Source of the DNA: Escherichia phage VEc25
Direction: 5' to 3' (one strand)
Length of the DNA: 64,000 bases
Sequence record: MW175414.1
Position 1 is the first letter of the stretch. Each line of letters starts with the position of its first letter. The notes beneath the pieces are model-generated. The model searched no databases and had not been told where the DNA came from. It saw only the letters and a program-made list of their open reading frames with translations. Of the stretch, positions 2,809 to 17,985 are shown piece by piece. The position numbers and the translations under genes are program-made.

Positions 2809-3119
2809 ACCAAATCATTGCTATCCCGCAGCATAAAGCTCGTATTGCTGACAGGAATATTCGTATTCATTATCCAATGCCTTTGAGCAATCCATTTCAG
2901 AAAAATGAGAGAACCACGGATGAAGATATAGCAGCAGCTTATGAGGCATATCTTCGTAACCGTTTGGTAAGTGGTGACAAGCTCATTACGGCCGAAATGG
3001 AACGAATTGCTAAATTCGTTATGGATACTACTGACAAACCAGTTGGCCTCATCGGTAATGAACTGGAAGTGAATGTAATCCGTAAGATTATTATGGAGGC
3101 TCTTAATGGGAATCAGTGA
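2805..3119 (+). CDS. Hypothetical protein
   Basis: ORF-track frame 2784..3119; the ATG at 2805 overlaps the upstream stop. Preferred over the antisense ORF 2721..3155. Confidence 0.4.
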   Translation: MNQIIAIPQHKARIADRNIRIHYPMPLSNPFQKNERTTDEDIAAAYEAYLRNRLVSGDKLITAEMERIAKFVMDTTDKPVGLIGNELEVNVIRKIIMEALNGNQ

Positions 3120-3281
3120 ATCCCAGGCTATGGCTATTAAACAGTTAGCCTTCAACTGCCTTAGTGCTATGAAGGCATTTAATGAAGCAAAAACTTTCCC
3201 TGACCAGAATAAAGCTCGTATTCAACTTTATCAGTCTAAGAAAGATTTTGAAGAATATCTGGAAAGTATTACGGTGAAATA

Positions 3282-3602
3282 ATGAAAACAATATTAATTG
3301 TTCATGATGCTGATTTTAATGATGTTGATAAAATGATGCGTAATATTGATTATGTAGCTCAGACAACTCCAACATTTAAAGAAGAATTTACTCTATATTG
3401 TGATGCTAATTCACCATTAGTTCCCATTCTGAAAGAAGCCGGTTTACCCTTCTCTACAGATAATTTCCCTGAAGAACCTGATTATGTAATTTCATTTATT
3501 TATGACTTACATGATGGCTCAGAACCAAGTGAATTGGCTATGAGTCAATGGAAATCCAGAAGACCTGTATATGCATTTCAGGTAGTTAAATCAAGGGGTT
3601 AA
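3282..3602 (+). CDS. Hypothetical protein
   Basis: ORF on the + strand. Confidence 0.45.
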   Translation: MKTILIVHDADFNDVDKMMRNIDYVAQTTPTFKEEFTLYCDANSPLVPILKEAGLPFSTDNFPEEPDYVISFIYDLHDGSEPSELAMSQWKSRRPVYAFQVVKSRG

Positions 3603-3604
3603 CT

Positions 3605-3973
3605 ATGTTAGGTGATAACACTAATGCTCTGTTTGGGGTGTCAGCCAGACCCATTATCATTGTTAATAAACATCATGGTAAGAAAGGTGAATATATTGGG
3701 CGTGGTTCTCCTCTGGGTAATCCATTCGTTATTGGTAAAGATGGAACCAGAGAAGAAGTAATTGCCAAATATAAAGTATGGCTACAAGAACAGATTGATA
3801 AAGGTAATCCAGATGTACTGGATGAATTAAATCGTCTTGGTAATAAAGCCATTGATGAAAAAGGATTAGCTTTACAGTGCTTCTGTTATCCAAAACCTTG
3901 TCATGGCGAGGTTATTAAAGAGAAGTTAGTGAAAGCTATGTATAACTATTTTGTGGAAAATCCTAATGGATAA
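3605..3973 (+). CDS. Hypothetical protein with GRGSPLGNPF motif
   Basis: ORF; the GNPF-type motif is reminiscent of small phage-associated domains of unknown function. Confidence 0.45.
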   Translation: MLGDNTNALFGVSARPIIIVNKHHGKKGEYIGRGSPLGNPFVIGKDGTREEVIAKYKVWLQEQIDKGNPDVLDELNRLGNKAIDEKGLALQCFCYPKPCHGEVIKEKLVKAMYNYFVENPNG

Positions 3974-4151
3974 ACAATGCAAATGTGGTAAAGGCTATGT
4001 ATCCCAATGGGATGGTAAATGTGGTCATTGTAGAACCAAGAAAGAACAACGTGACCATGAATATGCACTTCAGGAAATGATTGTACCTGTTGAGAATTTA
4101 GGTATGGCTCCACTTGAGGCTTACAAATACATAAGGAGATTATGCAAATGA
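3966..4151 (+). CDS. Small Cys-rich (zinc-ribbon-like) protein
   Basis: CKCGKG...CGHC arrangement; ORF-track frame 3951..4151 with an internal ATG at 3966. Confidence 0.35.
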   Translation: MDKQCKCGKGYVSQWDGKCGHCRTKKEQRDHEYALQEMIVPVENLGMAPLEAYKYIRRLCK

Positions 4152-4528
4152 AAGAAGTATTCGTATTTGGTTCTAACCTTGCTGGTGTACATGGTGCAGG
4201 TGCTGCAAAGACAGCATATAAGAAACATGGAGCCAGATGGGGTAAAGGGCATGGTCATTATGGTGACAGCTATGCCATTCCCACTAAAGATACCAATATC
4301 AAAACGATGGCTATTGAAGACATTCGTACATTTGTAAATGCCTTCATTGTCTATGCTGCTAATCATCCAGAACTTAACTTTAAAGTTACTCGTGTAGGGT
4401 GTGGATTAGCTGGTATTGATGATTCTGTTATGGCCTCTATGTTTAAAAATGCCACTGGTAACTGTTCCTTTGACTTAGCATGGAAAAGTTACTTAGGGGA
4501 TGATTTCAACTACTGGGGAACGTTCTAA
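4142..4528 (+). CDS. Hypothetical protein with glycine-rich Rossmann-like motif
   Basis: N-terminal VFVFGSNLAGVHGAGAAKTA and C-terminal RVGCGLAGID motifs. Confidence 0.45.
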   Translation: MQMKEVFVFGSNLAGVHGAGAAKTAYKKHGARWGKGHGHYGDSYAIPTKDTNIKTMAIEDIRTFVNAFIVYAANHPELNFKVTRVGCGLAGIDDSVMASMFKNATGNCSFDLAWKSYLGDDFNYWGTF

Positions 4529-4545
4529 CTCATACATTAGGCAAT

Positions 4546-4562
4546 AAGCTGCTCCGCAGCTT
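4546..4562 (+). promoter_or_regulatory. Hairpin promoter for virion RNA polymerase (7-bp stem, 3-nt loop)
   Basis: aagctgc-tcc-gcagctt followed by ttgg, 40 nt upstream of the RNAP II genes; same pattern as the hairpin at 557. Confidence 0.55.
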
Positions 4563-4602
4563 TTGGTAATTAATATGTTTAACCAATTTTGGAGAATATG
4601 CG

Positions 4603-5412
4603 ATGTCTACTATCGAACATCAGATGCACCTCGAAAAGCTGTACAACAAGAACCAACTGTTACCAAGAATGCGTCAGGAGTTTGAAGAAAACTCCGGTAT
4701 TGATTTCAAAGCCTTCTTTGCACATATAGGCATTGATTACAAATTTGGCATTGATGCAATGGTTCAAATGGCTCTGCATAAGCGAGCTGACCTACCAACA
4801 TTAGTTGGTACATTGCGTCATCACTGCAAATCTGCACAGGAAGTAGCAGACAACCTTTTTAAGATGGCAAGTGAGGATTGCTTTAACTTTGACCCGACCA
4901 TCGACAAGTTCATTGTCATTTATACAATCAGCGATGACGTACAGCATGAACTGGATTCATTTCAATATCCACTACCTATGGTAGTACGTCCTAAGCTGTT
5001 AACTAAGAATTACGGTACTGGGTACTTCACATGTAATAAGAGTGTGATTCTTAAGAAGAACCATACTGACGATGACATCTGCTTAGACCATCTGAACCGT
5101 ATGAATAAGATTCCATTGTCTATCAATTGGGATGTAGCTCATATGGTTAAAAATGAATGGGCTAATTTGGATAAACCGAAAGAAGGTGAAACTCGTCAAG
5201 AGTTTGAAAAACGTGTACGTGCATTCCAGAAATACGACCGTACTGCACATGAAGTGATGGGTTTATTGACCCGGGAAGGCAATAAGTTCTATCTGACTCA
5301 TCGTCCGGATAAACGTGGTCGTACCTATTCTCAGGGATACCATGTGAACTACCAGGGAACCAGTTGGAACAAGGCTGTCCTTGAATTTGCTGAAAAAGAA
5401 GTAATTGATTAA
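4603..5412 (+). CDS. Phage RNA polymerase II, small subunit (N4 gp15-like)
   Basis: 269-aa ORF immediately upstream of the T7-like catalytic subunit; size and position match the N4 heterodimeric RNAP II. Confidence 0.65.
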   Translation: MSTIEHQMHLEKLYNKNQLLPRMRQEFEENSGIDFKAFFAHIGIDYKFGIDAMVQMALHKRADLPTLVGTLRHHCKSAQEVADNLFKMASEDCFNFDPTIDKFIVIYTISDDVQHELDSFQYPLPMVVRPKLLTKNYGTGYFTCNKSVILKKNHTDDDICLDHLNRMNKIPLSINWDVAHMVKNEWANLDKPKEGETRQEFEKRVRAFQKYDRTAHEVMGLLTREGNKFYLTHRPDKRGRTYSQGYHVNYQGTSWNKAVLEFAEKEVID

Positions 5413-8056: not shown

Positions 8057-8263
8057 ATGTTTAAGTTCTTAGACCTTATCTGGGCAGTCATTTTGCTGGT
8101 TGCTACAGGCTTTGTATATGGCTTCTTGCTCCCATCAATGATGTCTGCTTTAGACAGCATCATTGTTGTTATGGGCTTGATAGTCTGTATTGTGTGGCCT
8201 CTTATCGTAGGCCGTATCGTTTATCTTACAGTTAAGAAAAGGATGAGAAGAAAACATGTATAA
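8057..8263 (+). CDS. Small two-helix membrane protein (NfeD-like partner candidate)
   Basis: 68-aa hydrophobic ORF with C-terminal basic tail; overlaps the start of the SPFH gene by 8 nt. Confidence 0.45.
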   Translation: MFKFLDLIWAVILLVATGFVYGFLLPSMMSALDSIIVVMGLIVCIVWPLIVGRIVYLTVKKRMRRKHV

Positions 8264-9092
8264 GTACATTGCAGTAGCAATTGCAGGGCTAATCATTGCT
8301 CTAAGTTTAACGAGCTGCTATGACCGAGTTGAACCAGGTAATGTAGGTATTATCGTTAACCGTCTTGGTGAAGATAAAGGTGTGGAAAATGAGGTTAAAG
8401 GTGTAGGCCGTTACTGGCTCACTTGGAATGAAGAACTTTATACATTCCCGACCTTTAAGCAGATGAAGACCTATGACGGTCTGTTCTACTTCCAACTGTC
8501 TGATGGTACTCAGATAGGCCACCAGATGGCTATCAGCTATAAAGTGAACCCTACTAAGGTAACTAATATCTTCCAGACGTATCGTAAGGGAGTTAATGAA
8601 ATTACCGAGCAGGATTTACGACAACGTATTGCTGATGTACTTAACAGACAGGGTAACCTGATTAACACTGATACCTTTATTGATGGTGGTAAATCTAAGC
8701 TACTGGATAGTGTCACTGACACAATCCGTAAAGAGATGGAACCAGTGGGGATTGATATTATTGCTATCTCCTGGATTGGTGCTCCTGAATACCCTGATAA
8801 CGTTAAACGTGCCATTAATGCCAAAGTAGAAGCTACTCAGAAAACTCTGCAACGTGAGCAAGAGATTCAGCAACGTGTAGCAGAAGCTAATATGGAACGT
8901 GAACAAGCTAAGGGTGTAGCAGATGCTATTCTGATTAAGGCTAAAGCAGAGGCTGATGCTATTCGTTTACGTGGTGAAGCACTCACTGAGAACCCAAATG
9001 TAATGCAACTGGAAGCCATTAATAAGTGGAATGGTACATTACCTACCACAATGATTCCTGGGGCTACTACACCTTTCGTTAATGTGAAATAA
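8256..9092 (+). CDS. SPFH/band-7 (HflK/C-like) membrane protein
   Basis: N-terminal TM helix, then a C-terminal coiled-coil rich in A/E/K/R (EATQKTLQREQEIQQRVAEANMEREQAKGVADAILIKAKAEADAIR) typical of SPFH proteins. Confidence 0.55.
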   Translation: MYKYIAVAIAGLIIALSLTSCYDRVEPGNVGIIVNRLGEDKGVENEVKGVGRYWLTWNEELYTFPTFKQMKTYDGLFYFQLSDGTQIGHQMAISYKVNPTKVTNIFQTYRKGVNEITEQDLRQRIADVLNRQGNLINTDTFIDGGKSKLLDSVTDTIRKEMEPVGIDIIAISWIGAPEYPDNVKRAINAKVEATQKTLQREQEIQQRVAEANMEREQAKGVADAILIKAKAEADAIRLRGEALTENPNVMQLEAINKWNGTLPTTMIPGATTPFVNVK

Positions 9093-9098
9093 CTAAGC

Positions 9099-9128
9099 AA
9101 ACCCACCATTACGGTGGGTTTATTTTTT
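9099..9128 (+). terminator. Rho-independent terminator
   Basis: aaacccacc-attac-ggtgggttt followed by a T-run. Confidence 0.6.
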
Positions 9129-9154: not shown

Positions 9155-9379
9155 ATGAAAGTAAATGTTTTACGTCGTAAGAAAGTTCCTTTCTTTCAAA
9201 TCAATTGTGGTTCATGTTTTCAACACGATGATGACTACTATATGAAGTGTAGTTATCAATCTAAAGAACACTTCTACGGTGTGAATTTACAAACAGGGCA
9301 TCTGTTCACATTTGATAATAATGACTTTGTTTATCCTGTGACTTTAGAAGCATGTATTCCTGACCCACTTAATAAATAG
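9155..9379 (+). CDS. Hypothetical protein
   Basis: ORF on the + strand. Confidence 0.35.
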   Translation: MKVNVLRRKKVPFFQINCGSCFQHDDDYYMKCSYQSKEHFYGVNLQTGHLFTFDNNDFVYPVTLEACIPDPLNK

Positions 9380-9380
9380 T

Positions 9381-9737
9381 ATGGCTCAAGAAAAGAATCG
9401 TCGTCAGACACTTATCGAACGTATTCAGGCCAGAATCAAATTACAGGACTTAGGCTATACCGTTAATGGTCAGCCTAGTCTCTGTCACATCTGGACTGGT
9501 TCACATTCAGGTAATGGACGTGGTGGGCAATATGGCAGGATTTCCGTGAATGGAGTTACCTCTGCAACTCATATTATTGCCTATACCCATTATCATGGTT
9601 ATATCCCCAATAAGATGCAAGTAGACCATCTCTGTAATAACCGTCTGTGCTGTAACCCTGAACATCTTGAATTGGTTACTCACCAAGAGAACCAGAGAAG
9701 AAGGGCTAAGCGTTCTAAATCTAAAGGAAATAAATAA
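9381..9737 (+). CDS. HNH endonuclease
   Basis: HNH motif region HYHGYIPNKMQVDHLCNNRLCCNPEHLELVTHQEN. Confidence 0.65.
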   Translation: MAQEKNRRQTLIERIQARIKLQDLGYTVNGQPSLCHIWTGSHSGNGRGGQYGRISVNGVTSATHIIAYTHYHGYIPNKMQVDHLCNNRLCCNPEHLELVTHQENQRRRAKRSKSKGNK

Positions 9738-9908
9738 ATGATTAAAAAACTTATTTGTAAACTTATTGCAGCAATCTTAATTAGTATTATTGGTATTGCA
9801 TGGGTAATTTCTACGCCAGATAACGTTATGCAACAAATTTATTATGCTGTATATACATCAACCTCTTTTGTTTGGGTTTATGTAATGTACCGTATTTGTA
9901 GCGACTAA
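9738..9908 (+). CDS. Small hydrophobic membrane protein (56 aa)
   Basis: ATG overlaps the stop of the HNH gene; two hydrophobic segments. Below the 60-aa ORF-track threshold, read by hand. Confidence 0.3.
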   Translation: MIKKLICKLIAAILISIIGIAWVISTPDNVMQQIYYAVYTSTSFVWVYVMYRICSD

Positions 9909-9937
9909 TACTTAATATAGCTTAACTGGAGAGTAAA

Positions 9938-10996
9938 ATGGCTAGTATTGATTCTATTGCCGTATGTAATCCACGGCAGGTACGTAAATTTGTTGAACAC
10001 TGTATCCGTTCAGGATTGGTTCCATTTATCACTTCATCTCCTGGTATGGGTAAATCTGCAATTGTTCGTCAGATTGCAGAAGATTTTGGCCTGAAACTGA
10101 TTGACCATCGTCTGTCTACTTCAGCACCAGAAGACCTGTCAGGTCTGCCTCGTTTTAAAGAAAATGGTCGTGCTGAATTTGCTCCATTTGATGAGCTATT
10201 CCCATTGGAAGGGGATGTTGTACCTGAAGGATTTAATGGCTGGCTTCTCTTTCTCGATGAGTTTAACTCTGCTCGTAAAGAGATTCAGGCTGCTGCTTAT
10301 AAATTGGTACTCGACCGTATGACTGGTCAGAAGAAGCTACATCCTTATGTAGCTATCGTATGTGCTGGTAACAAAGCAACTGACCGTGCCATTACTAATA
10401 ACCTATCTACAGCTATGCAATCACGTCTTATTCATCTGGAAATGGAGACTGATTTTGATGTCTTCATGGAAGATGTAGCCATCCCTAATAAGTGGGATGA
10501 GCGTGTAATTGCATTCCTGAATGCTAACCCAAATAAACTGAATGATTTTGAACCAGACCATCAAGAGAAGACTTTCTGTTGTTCTCGTACATGGGAGTTC
10601 GTTAACAAGATTGTTTCCATTCTCCCACCAGGACCAATTAATAGTGAAATGACTCTACTGTTAGCAGGCACTATCACTTCTGGTGTAGCAACATCATTCG
10701 TCCAGTTTACTCAGGTCTATAGCAACATGGTGTCTTTGAATGAGATTTTGGATAATCCTAAGAAAGCTCGTATGCCTGAAGACAATAACCTGTTGTGGGC
10801 TGTAGTCACTTCACTGATTAACAATACTGACGAAGATAATCATTCGAAAATCTTTGATTACGTTGAACGTATGCCATTTACGTTCAAGGTTTTGTACTAC
10901 CGTTCCGTAGGTAGTCTGGTTCCAGCTTTGGTTAAATTACCGAACTGGCGTGTTGCTGCAATCACATTATCTAAATACGTTCATGGTTCCAATTAA
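9938..10996 (+). CDS. AAA+ ATPase, MoxR-like
   Basis: Walker A SSPGMGKSA; Walker B-like LLFLDEFN; downstream VWA partner. Confidence 0.65.
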   Translation: MASIDSIAVCNPRQVRKFVEHCIRSGLVPFITSSPGMGKSAIVRQIAEDFGLKLIDHRLSTSAPEDLSGLPRFKENGRAEFAPFDELFPLEGDVVPEGFNGWLLFLDEFNSARKEIQAAAYKLVLDRMTGQKKLHPYVAIVCAGNKATDRAITNNLSTAMQSRLIHLEMETDFDVFMEDVAIPNKWDERVIAFLNANPNKLNDFEPDHQEKTFCCSRTWEFVNKIVSILPPGPINSEMTLLLAGTITSGVATSFVQFTQVYSNMVSLNEILDNPKKARMPEDNNLLWAVVTSLINNTDEDNHSKIFDYVERMPFTFKVLYYRSVGSLVPALVKLPNWRVAAITLSKYVHGSN

Positions 10997-11163
10997 TAAG
11001 AAGGGAGTTACAGACCTCCTGTATGTTGCTGGCTTTAACGGTGAAGAAATTACCGTATATGCCTCAAGTCTGGCTGCTGCTAAACAAAAGGCAGTTGAAT
11101 ACTTTCGTCCAAAGAAACGTGTAGCCCATACTATTTGGGTTCATCTCGCAGAGGAAAACTGAT

Positions 11164-12306
11164 ATGTCCATGACAGATGCTCAATTAACCCGTGAATATG
11201 ACAGATGTCAGGCTAAAGCCTTTATGGGCAAAACTGCTGCATTCTTTGGTTCACTGTTATGTTCTCTGAAGTTCCGTTGGGTAAAAGATGGCTGTGATAC
11301 AGCACAAACCGATGGTGAGCATCTCGAATGGAATCCTGATTGGTTTGAAAGTCTATTACCTGAATCTCGTGTAACAGTACTTATGCATGAACTATGGCAT
11401 GTCGGCTTACTGCATTCTGTTCGTATGGGTTCTCGTGACCCAGAAGTATGGAATTATGCCTGTGATATTTATATCAACAATCAGCTTATTCAGGATGGCT
11501 ACAGCTTTATAGAAATCGAAAATTGCTGGAAAGACCTTAAGTATGCTGGTTGGGCTGAAGAACAAATCTATGATGACCTCATGAGCAAACAGATACGTCC
11601 TCCTAAAGCATCAGGTGCTTTTGGGACTGGCTCAGGTGGTGACATGAAACCTTCCACTTCGAAGGCTAGTCAGGTGAATATTGTCAATAATGTAGTAAGA
11701 GCCATGCACCAACAGAAACTATCTGGTGGCTCTTTGCCTGGGGTATTACCTGGAAAAATGGAAGAAGTTATTACTCAATTCCTGAAACCAGTAGTACCGT
11801 GGCAGGTTTTACTTGAACGCTTCTTCAATGACCTGCAAGAAACTTACTACTCATGGCAACGGCCTAATCGTAGATACCCTGATATGTACCTACCATCTCC
11901 TATGGATGATGACGGTAAACTGGAACATCTGGCTTATTTCCTCGATACATCTGGCTCCATTAAACCTAAAGATGCTTTACGCTTTAGCTCTGAAGTGGCC
12001 TATGTAAAAGAGAAATATCAGCCTCAGAAGATGACTCTAGTTCAGTTCACTACAGAGATTGTAGACGAACAAGTCATTGAAGATGGTGATAAGTTTACTG
12101 ATGTCACTATCAAAGGACGTGGTGGTACTAGTCTGGTTCCTGTACGTGAGTGGATTATTAAGCATAAGCCTACTGCTGCCATTATCTTTACTGACTTAGA
12201 AGTCAGACCGATGGAGCCATTGCCATTTGACATTCCTGTCATATGGGTAGTTATTCGTAACCCTGGTGCACAAGTTCCATTTGGGAAAATTATTAACATT
12301 ACATGA
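11164..12306 (+). CDS. VWA-domain protein with N-terminal HExxH metallopeptidase-like domain
   Basis: HELWH motif N-terminally; MIDAS-like FLDTSGS in the C-terminal half; adjacent to the MoxR-like ATPase. Confidence 0.6.
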   Translation: MSMTDAQLTREYDRCQAKAFMGKTAAFFGSLLCSLKFRWVKDGCDTAQTDGEHLEWNPDWFESLLPESRVTVLMHELWHVGLLHSVRMGSRDPEVWNYACDIYINNQLIQDGYSFIEIENCWKDLKYAGWAEEQIYDDLMSKQIRPPKASGAFGTGSGGDMKPSTSKASQVNIVNNVVRAMHQQKLSGGSLPGVLPGKMEEVITQFLKPVVPWQVLLERFFNDLQETYYSWQRPNRRYPDMYLPSPMDDDGKLEHLAYFLDTSGSIKPKDALRFSSEVAYVKEKYQPQKMTLVQFTTEIVDEQVIEDGDKFTDVTIKGRGGTSLVPVREWIIKHKPTAAIIFTDLEVRPMEPLPFDIPVIWVVIRNPGAQVPFGKIINIT

Positions 12307-12312
12307 GGTTTT

Positions 12313-12819
12313 ATGGTTGTTAATGGAAAACTATTGTTAGGTGCTATGCCCATTAAGGGCATGGTTAACAGTAAACTCAGTTCAGGTGAGACTACATTTG
12401 GACTGGGAGAAGCTGGTTATGACATCCGTATTAAACAGGATGTTACCTTCTACCGATTTCTTGGTTTGATTCCCTGCATCAAGATTAAAGATGAAGGAAA
12501 GACCAAGTGGAAGTTTGGCACTTTCACATTAGCTTCTGCAATGGAACGTTTCAATGTACCTGCTGGCCTAGTAGGTATTGTCCATGACAAATCCACATGG
12601 GCAAGGCGTACATTATCTGTATTCAATACCGTTATTGAACCAGGATGGTCAGGCTATCTGACTTTAGAACTGGTTTATCACGGTCGTAAAAAACTTCATA
12701 TCCCTGCTGGTTCAGGTATTGCTCAGGTCATCTTCCATGAGACAGTAGAGAATACTGCCTACAATGGGCGATACCAGAACCAGCCTAATCAACCTGTAGC
12801 TGCTAAGTCAGCTCGTTAA
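12313..12819 (+). CDS. dCTP deaminase / dUTPase-fold protein
   Basis: GLGEAGYDIRI motif and beta-rich 168-aa size typical of dCTP deaminases. Confidence 0.5.
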   Translation: MVVNGKLLLGAMPIKGMVNSKLSSGETTFGLGEAGYDIRIKQDVTFYRFLGLIPCIKIKDEGKTKWKFGTFTLASAMERFNVPAGLVGIVHDKSTWARRTLSVFNTVIEPGWSGYLTLELVYHGRKKLHIPAGSGIAQVIFHETVENTAYNGRYQNQPNQPVAAKSAR

Positions 12820-12832
12820 TTAAGGAAATATC

Positions 12833-13033
12833 ATGTCTATCTTTACTACTAAGGTTAATGGTCAGAAAGTTACTGTTGTTGCTCGTAACGTAGCTTACGT
12901 TACTGAAAACAGTGAAGGCCGTGGTGTAATTACTTTTACTAACGGTGATTCCATTGATACTCAGGTAGGTTATGACTCTATCCGTCGTAACGTAGCTAAA
13001 GCACTTGATGGTGCTAAAGACATCGCAGAGTAA
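12833..13033 (+). CDS. Hypothetical protein
   Basis: 66-aa ORF with RBS; preferred over the antisense ORF. Confidence 0.4.
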   Translation: MSIFTTKVNGQKVTVVARNVAYVTENSEGRGVITFTNGDSIDTQVGYDSIRRNVAKALDGAKDIAE

Positions 13034-13108: not shown

Positions 13109-13132
13109 GCCCACTTTATGTGGGCTTTTTTA
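13109..13132 (+). terminator. Rho-independent terminator
   Basis: gcccac-tttat-gtgggc followed by TTTTTT. Confidence 0.5.
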
Positions 13133-15459: not shown

Positions 15460-17985
15460 ATGCAAGTAGCTGACTCTACTGAACTGACCACATCAGCAAC
15501 GTTGGGTGCTCAAGATGCTATGGCCTTCGGTATTTCTGAAGACCCAGCATTCTTCCAAATACTCAGTGCTAACCTCTATTCTAATCAGAAACTGGCAATG
15601 GTACGTGAGACATTGTGCAATAGCTGGGATGCTCATATTGAGGGGAATAAAACAGATATTCCTATCCATGTAACCATTGATAAAGATGGTTTCCTTATCT
15701 TCCGTGACTATGGTTCTGGTATTCCTAAAGATAAGATTCAAGAGGTCTATGGGGTATATGGTGCATCTACCAAGAAAGCTAATACTGCTTCCACCGGTGG
15801 CTTTGGCTTAGGATGTAAATCCCCTATGGCCTATACAGACAGTTTTACTGTCACATCTATGTGTGACGGAACCAAGACTGTCTATCACATTGCTAAATCT
15901 TCTGTTGAGACTAACGGTAAACCAGGGATTATTCCTATTGTTAGCGTACCTACTGAAGAATCCGGGCTTGAAGTTAAAATTCAGCTTCAGTCAGAAGATA
16001 TTTTAGAAATTGATTCATATATTCGAGCCATTGTATTACATGGCGAGATTAAATGTATTTACTACAATCAGTATACAGGACCAAATACAGTAGAATTACT
16101 GCCTGTACTGGGTATGTCTTTTGAACCAGGTAGCTATAACCTAGACCATAGCACATGGCATAAATATTACATGGGCAGTCATTCAATATTTATCCGTTAT
16201 GGTAATGTTATGTACCCTGCTTTGGATACCCCTGCTACACATGAAGCATTAAAACTGGTTAAACAGTTTATGCAGGTTATTAACTGTAGCCGTATCGTTG
16301 TTCAAGCTGCCCCATCATCACTAGCTGTAGCACCTAGCCGTGAAACACTGTCATCTCAAAAAATGACCGAAGACGGTATTGTAAATTTGGCTGTAGCTTT
16401 AGTAGATAAAATGGAAGCAGATATTAAAGCTCGTCTTCCAAATGCTATTGAATATATTGGGAAGGCTATTAAAGAATATAGTCCTCACCGTTTTGAAGTA
16501 AATAGTTATTTGCCTTACACCAATTTAGTGCCTGATGTTATTGTCAGTCGTTATATGTCCTCTACTTTATTCAGTAAGCAATATGCCCATCTGTGTAAGA
16601 AATGGGGAAATATGGAAATTGACCGTCAACTAGAACATCCTGCACTGGCTCATTTCTCTGGTTCTCAAAAAGCCCATCTCCGTAAGCATTTAAAGAGGGC
16701 TAAGGATTTACGTAATTACAGGGAATTAACTAAAGTATTTACTGATATGGCTATTAAGCCAATGTTCAAAACCTTTGCTAAATTGGGGATTACTAAAGGT
16801 ATTTCCCTATTTCATTATCAATATGGTGTTGAACTGTGGCGTAATAATATTGTTAATAGTGTTCGTAGAATACACTCATTAAACTTCATGACTTATAGTT
16901 CTAAGAAGTGCCGTGTATTTGTTACCCCACGTATTACCAATATTGAAGATAGTCTGGCTGGGTATCCAGAGTTTGATAATCTTTCTACTGAGACACTGGT
17001 GAAATATAACTCAATCATTGTCAAAGTTGGAACCAAGAAAGGTGAAGCAGAAGCTATGACTAATCTACTCACTAAAGCAGGATACGAAGTCATTAATATG
17101 GCTGAATATCATGAGTGGGATTGTATAGCTCGCAGACGTAAAGAGGAACAAGAGGCTAAATTAGCCATTTCCAAATTACAAGCTAAGAAGGCTACTAATA
17201 AGAAAAAGGTTAGTCCTAATCGTCTTATTAGTATGAATATCCTTGAAATACCAAAAGAGCATCGTAGCTATTCAAGTGAGGTATGTGGTTCTCACTACGC
17301 TTCTCGTTCTCATGACCGAATGGTTGATGTAGATACTCCCCAGTATTACATCATGCAGGAAGATATTAATAACTACACAGGAAGGCTTGGTGTTCTTTCT
17401 ATGTGGCAATTAACCCCTGCTACCATTAAAGCTGTAACTGTTGTTTGTCGTAATAAAATTGAACGTAATAAAGCTATTAAGCGAGGTGCTGTTCATTTGG
17501 ATGAATGGACTGCTCCGTATATTGCTTCAGTTCTTACATCCAAACAATTCATTAAGTATGTCACTAAAGAACGTCAGAAAACGTTAAGTGATATTGGTAT
17601 TTACTCCAAACACCTCAGATTACTGAGAGAACTGGATATTACATATGCCCCATTGAAAGGTCTGCGTTATGACCCAGAACTGGAGAATGCTTATCTCTTC
17701 TTACAAAGTAGTAGCTACCCTAAGCTACGTGCATTGTTAGGGAAGGGTCTGATTACTGAAGAAGAGTATCACTTCCTCAGTGATGTTGATGTGCATTGCA
17801 AGACTTTCAGTAAGTACTCGGAACTTCGTAGGATACCGAAGATGTTCCTTGATATTGATGCTGGGGGTTATATGTTGGCTGCATGTACTGTAGACACATT
17901 GCTTCGTGAAATCGAACAATTCCCTGAATCAATCCCTGCAATCAAACTGCTTGTAAAAGCTGCTCTTAAACGGAATACAGACTGA
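15460..17985 (+). CDS. rIIA-like protein (N-terminal GHKL ATPase fold)
   Basis: Bergerat-fold N-box ETLCNSWDAH and G1 box DYGSGIP; large size; followed by a second large ORF with ATGA overlap. Confidence 0.5.
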   Translation: MQVADSTELTTSATLGAQDAMAFGISEDPAFFQILSANLYSNQKLAMVRETLCNSWDAHIEGNKTDIPIHVTIDKDGFLIFRDYGSGIPKDKIQEVYGVYGASTKKANTASTGGFGLGCKSPMAYTDSFTVTSMCDGTKTVYHIAKSSVETNGKPGIIPIVSVPTEESGLEVKIQLQSEDILEIDSYIRAIVLHGEIKCIYYNQYTGPNTVELLPVLGMSFEPGSYNLDHSTWHKYYMGSHSIFIRYGNVMYPALDTPATHEALKLVKQFMQVINCSRIVVQAAPSSLAVAPSRETLSSQKMTEDGIVNLAVALVDKMEADIKARLPNAIEYIGKAIKEYSPHRFEVNSYLPYTNLVPDVIVSRYMSSTLFSKQYAHLCKKWGNMEIDRQLEHPALAHFSGSQKAHLRKHLKRAKDLRNYRELTKVFTDMAIKPMFKTFAKLGITKGISLFHYQYGVELWRNNIVNSVRRIHSLNFMTYSSKKCRVFVTPRITNIEDSLAGYPEFDNLSTETLVKYNSIIVKVGTKKGEAEAMTNLLTKAGYEVINMAEYHEWDCIARRRKEEQEAKLAISKLQAKKATNKKKVSPNRLISMNILEIPKEHRSYSSEVCGSHYASRSHDRMVDVDTPQYYIMQEDINNYTGRLGVLSMWQLTPATIKAVTVVCRNKIERNKAIKRGAVHLDEWTAPYIASVLTSKQFIKYVTKERQKTLSDIGIYSKHLRLLRELDITYAPLKGLRYDPELENAYLFLQSSSYPKLRALLGKGLITEEEYHFLSDVDVHCKTFSKYSELRRIPKMFLDIDAGGYMLAACTVDTLLREIEQFPESIPAIKLLVKAALKRNTD

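Follow-up and report, generated by a model that had tools for sequence, protein, structure and literature searches.

A MoxR-class ATPase gene paired with a gene for a peptidase-like VWA protein in an N4-like phage, with a possible role in host takeover or counterdefense

Introduction

In the CbbQ-CbbO, NorQ-NorD, RavA-ViaA, and Midasin systems, an ATPase with a MoxR-class fold is encoded together with a partner whose VWA domain carries a complete metal ion-dependent adhesion site (MIDAS). A combination of a MoxR ATPase with a metallopeptidase-VWA protein was reported in 2021 for group 2.2 jumbo phages (Iyer et al. 2021, PMC7824862), where a possible role in assembly was proposed. Here, we analyze a gene pair of this kind, gp24 and gp25, in Escherichia phage VEc25 (record MW175414.1). 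The whole stretch of DNA that was analyzed, called the window below, is 64,000 nucleotides long and covers the left part of the genome of an Enquatrovirus. Both genes and all the motifs within them lie on the plus strand, with gp24 at positions 9938-10996 (352 amino acids) and gp25 at positions 11164-12306 (380 amino acids). These two open reading frames (ORFs) are exactly those proposed in an initial annotation of the window.

That annotation described the pair but did not name its counterpart, which is gp24/gp25 of coliphage N4. The coordinates and gene order are identical to those in N4 record EF056009, and a 2.45-kb stretch around the pair has 97.7% DNA identity with N4 and 99.3% identity with Escherichia phage vB_EcoP_3HA13. 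Nothing of substance differs from the N4 locus, and the original N4 record carries no coding sequence (CDS) annotation for a 59-amino-acid ORF that lies between the two genes. Compared with the partners in CbbQ-CbbO, NorQ-NorD, RavA-ViaA, and Midasin, gp25 is distinguished by a fused HExxH domain that those proteins lack, and gp24 falls below the curated cut-offs for MoxR. The group 2.2 jumbo phages share the same two-gene architecture, and the genes of G17, 121Q, and phAPEC6 are homologous to gp24/gp25 (E = 1.8e-40 and 3.1e-40). However, the identity is only 25-28%, and the jumbo-phage proteins contain insertions.

The literature has listed gp24 (“AAA+ ATPase”) and gp25 (“vWFA domain”) since 2009-2014 as core genes of N4-like phages with no assigned function, in agreement with the statement of the initial annotation that the role of the pair in a phage is not established. 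Both are among the 14-15 core genes of the Schitoviridae (PMC4193335, PMC7650795), including in the proposal of that family. Because the family-wide core genes have been published and the phage MoxR/peptidase-VWA architecture was described in 2021, the gene pair is already known, and its detection in the window rediscovers a published annotation. What is new here is that rV5-like phages, jumbo phages, and plasmids that are conjugative or large carry the same pair, that its homologs contain inteins and a likely group I intron, and that a transposon screen from 2025 can be linked to it. A literature search on the DUF2201/COG3864 family of gp25 and on metalloproteases of the Schitoviridae returned nothing relevant, and N4-like phages were outside the scope of one transposon-mutagenesis preprint.

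We favor the view, with a probability of roughly 45%, that gp24 and gp25 form one functional ATP-driven remodeling or proteolysis module that serves host takeover or counterdefense rather than the building of virions.

Results

The gp25 protein is made of an N-terminal zincin-like domain, an arginine-rich linker, and a C-terminal VWA domain. Pfam DUF2201_N (E = 1.1e-85; 288 bits versus a cut-off of 23.2) is followed by the VWA-like DUF2201 (E = 2e-46; 157.6 bits versus a cut-off of 26.4), and both are matched by all 41 close gp25 homologs. Having both domains in this order, gp25 belongs to the DUF2201_N/DUF2201 family, a COG3864-type “predicted metal-dependent peptidase.” The linker is poorly modeled, with model confidence scores (pLDDT) below 50 for amino acids 227-245.

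Residue conservation was assessed in these 41 close homologs and in 8 distant ones that reach down to 21-29% identity to gp25 and include rV5-like, jumbo, and Rhizobium phages at 24-29%. Four residues of the motif HELWHVGLLH (HExxHxxxxH; amino acids 75-84, positions 11386-11415) never vary, namely H75, E76, H79, and H84, which include the putative zinc site and catalytic glutamate. The same is true of N97, A99, and D101 in the NYACD motif (amino acids 97-101, positions 11452-11466). In the linker between the domains, P234, R236, and R237 of the RPNRR motif (amino acids 233-237, positions 11860-11874) and the nearby P244 are invariant even in distant homologs. The MIDAS is complete (DxSxS...T...D), with invariant D261, S263, and S265 in DTSGS (amino acids 261-265, positions 11944-11958), G321 and T322 in GGTS (amino acids 320-323), and D344 in FTD (amino acids 342-344; these last two motifs span positions 12121-12195). 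Because these residues are unchanged across close and distant homologs, strong constraint evidently acts on the putative zinc site with its catalytic glutamate and on the whole MIDAS. Given the composition of gp25, only 0.008 occurrences of HExxH would be expected by chance, and either H84 or D101 is a candidate third zinc ligand.

In the predicted structure of gp25, the HExxH motif is placed at the C-terminal end of helix 66-81 and follows a three-stranded sheet, an order that would be expected for a zincin. The C-terminal domain has the Rossmann-like VWA fold, and its structural matches include the MIDAS domain of Midasin and the VWA domain of NorD. Pfam matches and residue conservation, together with the fold in the case of the VWA domain, bear out two assignments of the initial annotation: an N-terminal HELWH metallopeptidase-like domain and a C-terminal VWA domain with the MIDAS sequence DTSGS. 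Single-sequence and profile searches retrieved no sequence relative of gp25 from the PDB, and an NCBIfam search gave nothing meaningful.

The name of this protein in databases deserves comment. PHROG 1314, to which gp25 belongs (E = 1.3e-135), is labeled “HNH endonuclease,” and gp25 homologs bear this name in many RefSeq phage records, including NC_008720 for N4. There is no HNH signature in gp25, and the name looks like a propagated annotation error.

The gp24 protein fits the AAA+ superfamily, since Walker A, Walker B, sensor-1, and arginine finger motifs are placed on an alpha/beta ATPase core with a helical lid, which is followed by a conserved C-terminal helical domain. For this protein, we compared 41 close homologs (52-80% identity) and 6 distant sequences (18-38% identity). 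In the Walker A motif GMGKS (amino acids 36-40, positions 10043-10057), G38, K39, and S40 are invariant in the close set, and G38 and K39 are also retained in the distant set. Both sets retain D107 and E108 of the Walker B motif LFLDEF (amino acids 104-109, positions 10247-10264), as well as N145 of sensor-1 (AGN) and R163 of the putative arginine finger (QSRL), which together span positions 10364-10429. A further motif, PEDLSGLP (amino acids 64-71, positions 10127-10150), has P64, D66, G69, L70, and P71 invariant among the 41 close homologs. It begins a beta-hairpin inserted after helix 2, for which the model gives strands at 70-73 and 79-82, and presumably it resembles the “PSDxxG” signature of MoxR proteins.

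The initial annotation called gp24 MoxR-like and held that a lack of matches to MoxR or VWA profiles would refute its proposal. The VWA profile was matched strongly, whereas the MoxR-class profiles are borderline. The gp24 sequence scored 21.9 bits with AAA_5 (cut-off 22), 20.0 bits with AAA (cut-off 21.2), and 11.1 bits with bpMoxR (cut-off 27), and it also lies below the curated cut-off of AAA_3. When the 41 homologs were searched at E values up to 10, 37 matched AAA_5 (best E = 6.3e-6), 14 matched AAA_3, and 8 matched bpMoxR, with no strong match among them. Searches of PDB sequences, whether with the single sequence or with a profile, gave only a weak match to midasin, and gp24 belongs to PHROG 1297 (E = 1.1e-135).

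Structural comparison is more informative. The nearest folds to the gp24 model are dynein, midasin, CbbQ, and NorQ, and the model has beta-hairpins at amino acids 70-82 and 132-145, which in the MoxR/dynein clade would be the helix-2 insert and pre-sensor-1 hairpin. Closest folds, helix-2 insert, and pre-sensor-1 beta-hairpin, which together define a MoxR protein structurally, are thus all present in the model. The gene also sits beside that of a VWA partner, as expected of the MoxR family. Because of this fold and this pairing, “MoxR-like” is a fair description of the structural class of gp24, although strict membership based on profiles narrowly fails.

The pairing of the two genes is conserved over a wide range of mobile elements. 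A tblastn search found gp25 homologs in 688 phage records, which include Schitoviridae of many hosts, rV5-like Vequintavirinae, Asteriusvirus and other jumbo phages, and a Rhizobium phage. A profile search returned 21,783 clusters at 50% identity (E up to 0.001). Among the loci that were fetched with an intact upstream flank, a gp24-family gene lies no more than about 4 kb from every full-length gp25 homolog; the flank is missing from one record (L018 in our numbering of loci), which begins just upstream of its gp25 homolog. This association spans Schitoviridae, rV5-like phages, jumbo Asteriusvirus, a Rhizobium phage, and plasmids.

The pair is found on 77 plasmids, of which 30 are conjugative, and the ATPases they encode align with almost the whole of the gp24 profile (E = 1e-38 to 1e-42). 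On Burkholderia plasmids of the MOBH/MPF_T type, the pair lies directly upstream of the type IV secretion system operon. It is located beside toprim and ParB genes on a Rhodovastum plasmid and among defense-like genes (Sir2, WYL, and DUF262) on a Sphaerotilus plasmid. A gene of about 300 amino acids between the plasmid ATPase and VWA genes has no Pfam match and no similarity to the “anti-sigma factor” gene of rV5-like phages that is described below. A scan of genome contigs with narrow patterns recovered N4-like elements only, and the cellular context was taken from the plasmid collection.

Homologs of both genes have been invaded by other mobile elements. Two gp25 homologs (P0244 and P0249) contain inteins of about 150 and 305 amino acids at an identical site between A99 and C100 of the NxACD motif. 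Each intein begins with Cys and ends with VVHN, which is followed by Cys. The placement of inteins within this invariant motif argues that the motif is functionally central. In a 73-kb N4-like contig binned as Sphaerochaetaceae (L002, positions 2871-4803), about 760 bp of inserted DNA divides the gp24 homolog into two ORFs. The insert holds an endonuclease gene (NUMOD4/HNH_3) and a match to a group I intron in Rfam that falls below threshold (29.6 bits, E = 2.9e-5), and it probably represents a mobile intron within the AAA+ gene.

Functional data are available for orthologs of the pair in another phage. Gene essentiality was mapped in the Vequintavirus Bas54, also called phage MaxBurger, in a 2025 preprint (bioRxiv 10.1101/2025.11.20.689424). 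The gene bas54_0063 encodes a MoxR ATPase of PHROG 1297 (E = 2.2e-110), the PHROG of gp24. The gene bas54_0055 encodes a “putative metallopeptidase” and is positioned as bas57_0054 of phage MaxTheCat, which belongs to PHROG 1314 (E = 4.9e-123), like gp25. In their domains and invariant residues, the Bas54 proteins coincide with gp24 and gp25. However, their genes are 3.6 kb apart on opposite strands, and the proteins have about 21-25% identity to those of N4.

On Escherichia coli K-12, transposon insertions hit 60 of 64 and 81 of 86 TA sites in the two Bas54 genes, and both are non-essential (bioRxiv 10.1101/2025.11.20.689424). The same study found that a knock-out of bas54_0063 specifically fails against DS-28, a two-gene predicted defense system of strain CFE311. 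Between K-12 and CFE311, insertions in bas54_0063 fell from 148.7 to 0 (log2 fold change of -7.23, adjusted p of 0), and those in bas54_0055 fell from 219.7 to 47.2 (log2 fold change of -2.20, adjusted p of 0.009). The partner gene is therefore affected in the same host, less strongly than the ATPase gene. We also observed that in supplementary file 9 of this preprint the sheet “Data S6” is headed as a comparison of K-12 with CFE303, whereas its console line and values are those of the CFE311 comparison and duplicate Data S7.

Discussion

If gp24 and gp25 do form a single module, its mode of action might be as follows. As a MoxR-class AAA+ ATPase, gp24 would presumably form a hexameric ring, and gp25 would be its adaptor and effector. 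Through its intact MIDAS metal site, the VWA domain of gp25 would grip an acidic residue of the target, as in Midasin, CbbO, and NorD, and force generated by gp24 would remodel or unfold the protein held in this way. The fused zincin domain, which appears from its residues to be active, may then cut the target. The whole would be a split ATP-dependent protease-like device, with the 59-amino-acid protein a part of it in some lineages, and the outcome would be a host protein that is neutralized or removed. The domains, the intact active-site and metal-binding residues, the folds, and the constant pairing over so wide a distribution are observed here and speak for such a module. We infer the physical interaction of gp24 with gp25, the proteolysis, and the direction of action, and the counterdefense role would carry over by analogy from the distant ortholog in Bas54.

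Such a device would resemble the FtsH-type AAA+ proteases, which likewise join an AAA+ ATPase to an HExxH zinc peptidase, but it would not be a member of that group. Here, the ATPase, which is MoxR-class, and the peptidase are on two different polypeptides, and the VWA domain with its MIDAS would be the substrate selector. Moreover, there is no membrane anchor and no M41 sequence match.

The initial annotation suggested host takeover or assembly as the role of the pair. Host takeover is the better supported of the two, given that the Bas54 orthologs are dispensable on K-12 and the ATPase is needed against DS-28. Plasmids that are conjugative or large also carry the pair although they produce no virions, which likewise favors a takeover or counterdefense module. 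The genes rIIA and rIIB lie near the pair in both N4 and Bas54, and the rIIAB proteins of N4 counter RexAB (PMC11879866). In addition, N4-like phages withstand restriction-modification systems without a known mechanism of genome protection (PMC11990801).

Several observations weigh against this interpretation. The functional data come from orthologs that are about 21-25% identical and belong to another phage family. In that study, the plaque assay validated only the ATPase knock-out, and the effect on the peptidase-VWA gene is modest. No match to PADLOC models of defense or anti-defense was found beyond chance level (E of 0.026 or above). Both fold searches of the PDB with the two-domain gp25 model returned VWA matches only and none for a zincin fold of the N-terminal domain. 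Furthermore, gp24 and gp25 belong to the core of every member of the Schitoviridae, with 50-60% identity between genera. Conservation of this degree is unusual for counterdefense genes and suggests a conserved housekeeping target. Finally, the orthologous ATPase of jumbo phage phAPEC6, gp265c, was detected by mass spectrometry in purified virions (6 peptides).

These last two observations keep alive an alternative in which the pair is a chaperone-protease for virion assembly or maturation. It would help to fold or assemble large structural or ejected proteins, such as the 3,500-amino-acid virion RNA polymerase (vRNAP), and the peptidase would trim them. When an assembly role was suggested for this architecture in jumbo phages of group 2.2, the MoxR-VWA tail-development system of Acidianus two-tailed virus served as the precedent (PMC7824862). 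The neighbors of gp265c are structural proteins, and gp24 and gp25 are core genes alongside vRNAP in the Schitoviridae. On the other hand, the phAPEC6 virion preparations also held thymidylate synthase, which makes non-structural carry-over plausible, and the peptidase-VWA partner was not detected there. The hypothesis is weakened because both Bas54 orthologs are dispensable for plaques on K-12, because plasmids carry the pair, and because the N4 pair resides in the middle-gene block, away from the late structural genes. We consider an assembly role unlikely, though it is the best placed of the alternatives.

A second alternative, to which we give only a slim chance, is a replication-associated protease. 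An SprT/Wss1-like zincin and an AAA+ segregase (compare SPRTN-p97 and Wss1-Cdc48) would then clear stuck or cross-linked proteins from replicating phage or plasmid DNA. Several lineages do have genes for replication or nucleotide metabolism next to the pair. These encode dCTP deaminase and ThyX for N4, a helicase and a DNA polymerase for YH6, DNA polymerase I for the Rhizobium phage, and toprim and ParB proteins for the Rhodovastum plasmid. The intron and inteins in homologs also fit the habit of such elements of targeting replication-type genes. However, neighborhood is weak evidence in densely packed phage genomes, and the genes are dispensable in Bas54 on K-12. Like the SprT/Wss1/ArdC-type minimal zincins of phages and conjugative plasmids, gp25 has a short HExxH(x4-5)H motif after a small beta-sheet, but this likeness, though suggestive, is without statistical support. 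The SprT-like family (Pfam PF10263) is matched by one of the 41 gp25 family members (E = 2.8e-4). With hhalign, the gp25-family alignment could be placed on Escherichia coli SprT in the register TA...NP...HExxH...H at a Prob of 26%, and comparison with an alignment of SprT and its homologs, of which those listed were all at least 75% identical, gave a non-significant Prob of 2.6%. Membership of gp25 in the SprT family is not established at these values. Moreover, gp25 has no single-stranded DNA-binding domain, and Pfam searches detected no DNA-binding domain in gp25 or its family members.

It is very unlikely that the pair acts without proteolysis in metal-cofactor insertion or enzyme activation of the CobS/CobT, NorQ/NorD, CoxD/CoxE, or CbbQ/CbbO type, because although gp24 matches the CobS-like PHROG 249 (E = 1.6e-7), four gp25-family members weakly match VWA_CoxE, and the fold search with gp25 retrieved the VWA domain of NorD, the CobT/NorD/CoxE/CbbO-type systems lack the fused HExxH domain whose motif is invariant in the gp25 family, gp24 is no closer to those ATPases than to dynein or midasin, and no candidate client metalloenzyme is common to the N4-like, rV5-like, jumbo phage, and plasmid loci examined.

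A takeover or counterdefense module remains our preferred explanation for the pair. If it is an ATP-dependent protease that is targeted by a MIDAS to host defense or takeover targets, it would represent a new class of counterdefense machinery and would help to set, in practice, the host range of N4-like and rV5-like phages used in therapy. The gp24 and gp25 genes are two of only about fifteen common to all N4-like phages, and more than 20,000 sequence clusters from phages and plasmids make up the wider family. A bolder version, which we regard as rather improbable, is that gp24/gp25 is a general ATP-driven “defense-stripping” protease of mobile elements, common to conjugative plasmids and to lytic phages of the N4-like, rV5-like, and jumbo types, whose MIDAS captures host defense or DNA-bound proteins for destruction. 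If this were true, it could explain the restriction resistance of N4-like phages without DNA modification, and the pair would be a protease counterpart of ArdC-type anti-restriction.

Genomic context and additional observations

The two genes are neighbors in order but are not contiguous, since gp24 and gp25 are separated by 167 bp. The initial annotation called them adjacent and missed a conserved ORF of 59 amino acids at this place (positions 10983-11162, plus strand), which belongs to PHROG 19202 (E = 4.8e-33) and is an optional third gene of the module. Counterparts at the same position are 59% identical in the L002 contig and 32% identical in Achromobacter phage Axy10, and the ORF is also found in a Roseococcus metagenome-assembled genome (MAG; L008). 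Because it is absent from several lineages in which gp24 and gp25 abut (L007, L009, and L010), an obligatory third subunit is ruled out. The 59-amino-acid protein is unrelated to bas54_0140, the second anti-DS-28 gene of Bas54, and no homolog of bas54_0140 was found in the window.

Upstream of gp24 are the HNH endonuclease gene gp22 and then gp23, and genes for dCTP deaminase, ThyX (gp30), and rIIA/rIIB follow downstream of gp25. In N4, gp24 and gp25 are middle-phase genes (PMC4193335). The middle genes of N4 are transcribed by the phage polymerase RNAPII, and the middle block that contains the pair also holds nucleotide-metabolism genes and the rIIA/rIIB counterdefense genes. A scan for sigma-70 promoters found fewer sites than in shuffled sequences and was uninformative. 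Two strong terminator-like hairpins, at 9099-9121 and 13109-13125, flank the block from gp21 to gp27 (9155-13033), which includes the pair, and this block may be one transcription unit. Farther out, gp20 (8256-9092) encodes an SPFH/Band-7 protein (E = 1.7e-23), and the rIIA-like protein (15460-17985) has a weak N-terminal match to the GHKL ATPase domain (HATPase_c).

Several database records that surfaced in these searches merit mention. The gene that lies immediately upstream of the one for the peptidase-VWA protein in rV5-like phages bears the annotation “anti-sigma factor” (L005, 3924-4901; L024, 1883-2860). Its best PHROG matches are HNH/endonuclease families, and matches to Srd-like anti-sigma families are weak. 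Unverified and unannotated “Campylobacter phage” records (MG0656xx, for example L016), which are classified as Vequintavirus, have a MoxR gene that is 97-99% identical to that of E. coli rV5-like phages, and their host label is doubtful.

Syntenic N4-like blocks with genes for an RNAP2-type polymerase, gp24, gp25, dCTP deaminase, ThyX, and further N4 homologs occur within very large bacterial contigs. One is in the Roseococcus MAG (L008, 296-kb contig), and another is in Mesorhizobium yinganensis CN2-181 (L009, 727-kb contig, 432974-450110). Such blocks might represent schitovirus-like elements, either integrated or carried, or else chimeras of the assembly. Likewise, the circular Acinetobacter baumannii “plasmid” pRBH2-3 (L022, 75,126 bp) encodes an N4-type RNA polymerase and gp24 and gp25 homologs in an N4-like order, and it is probably an N4-like phage genome that was deposited as a plasmid.

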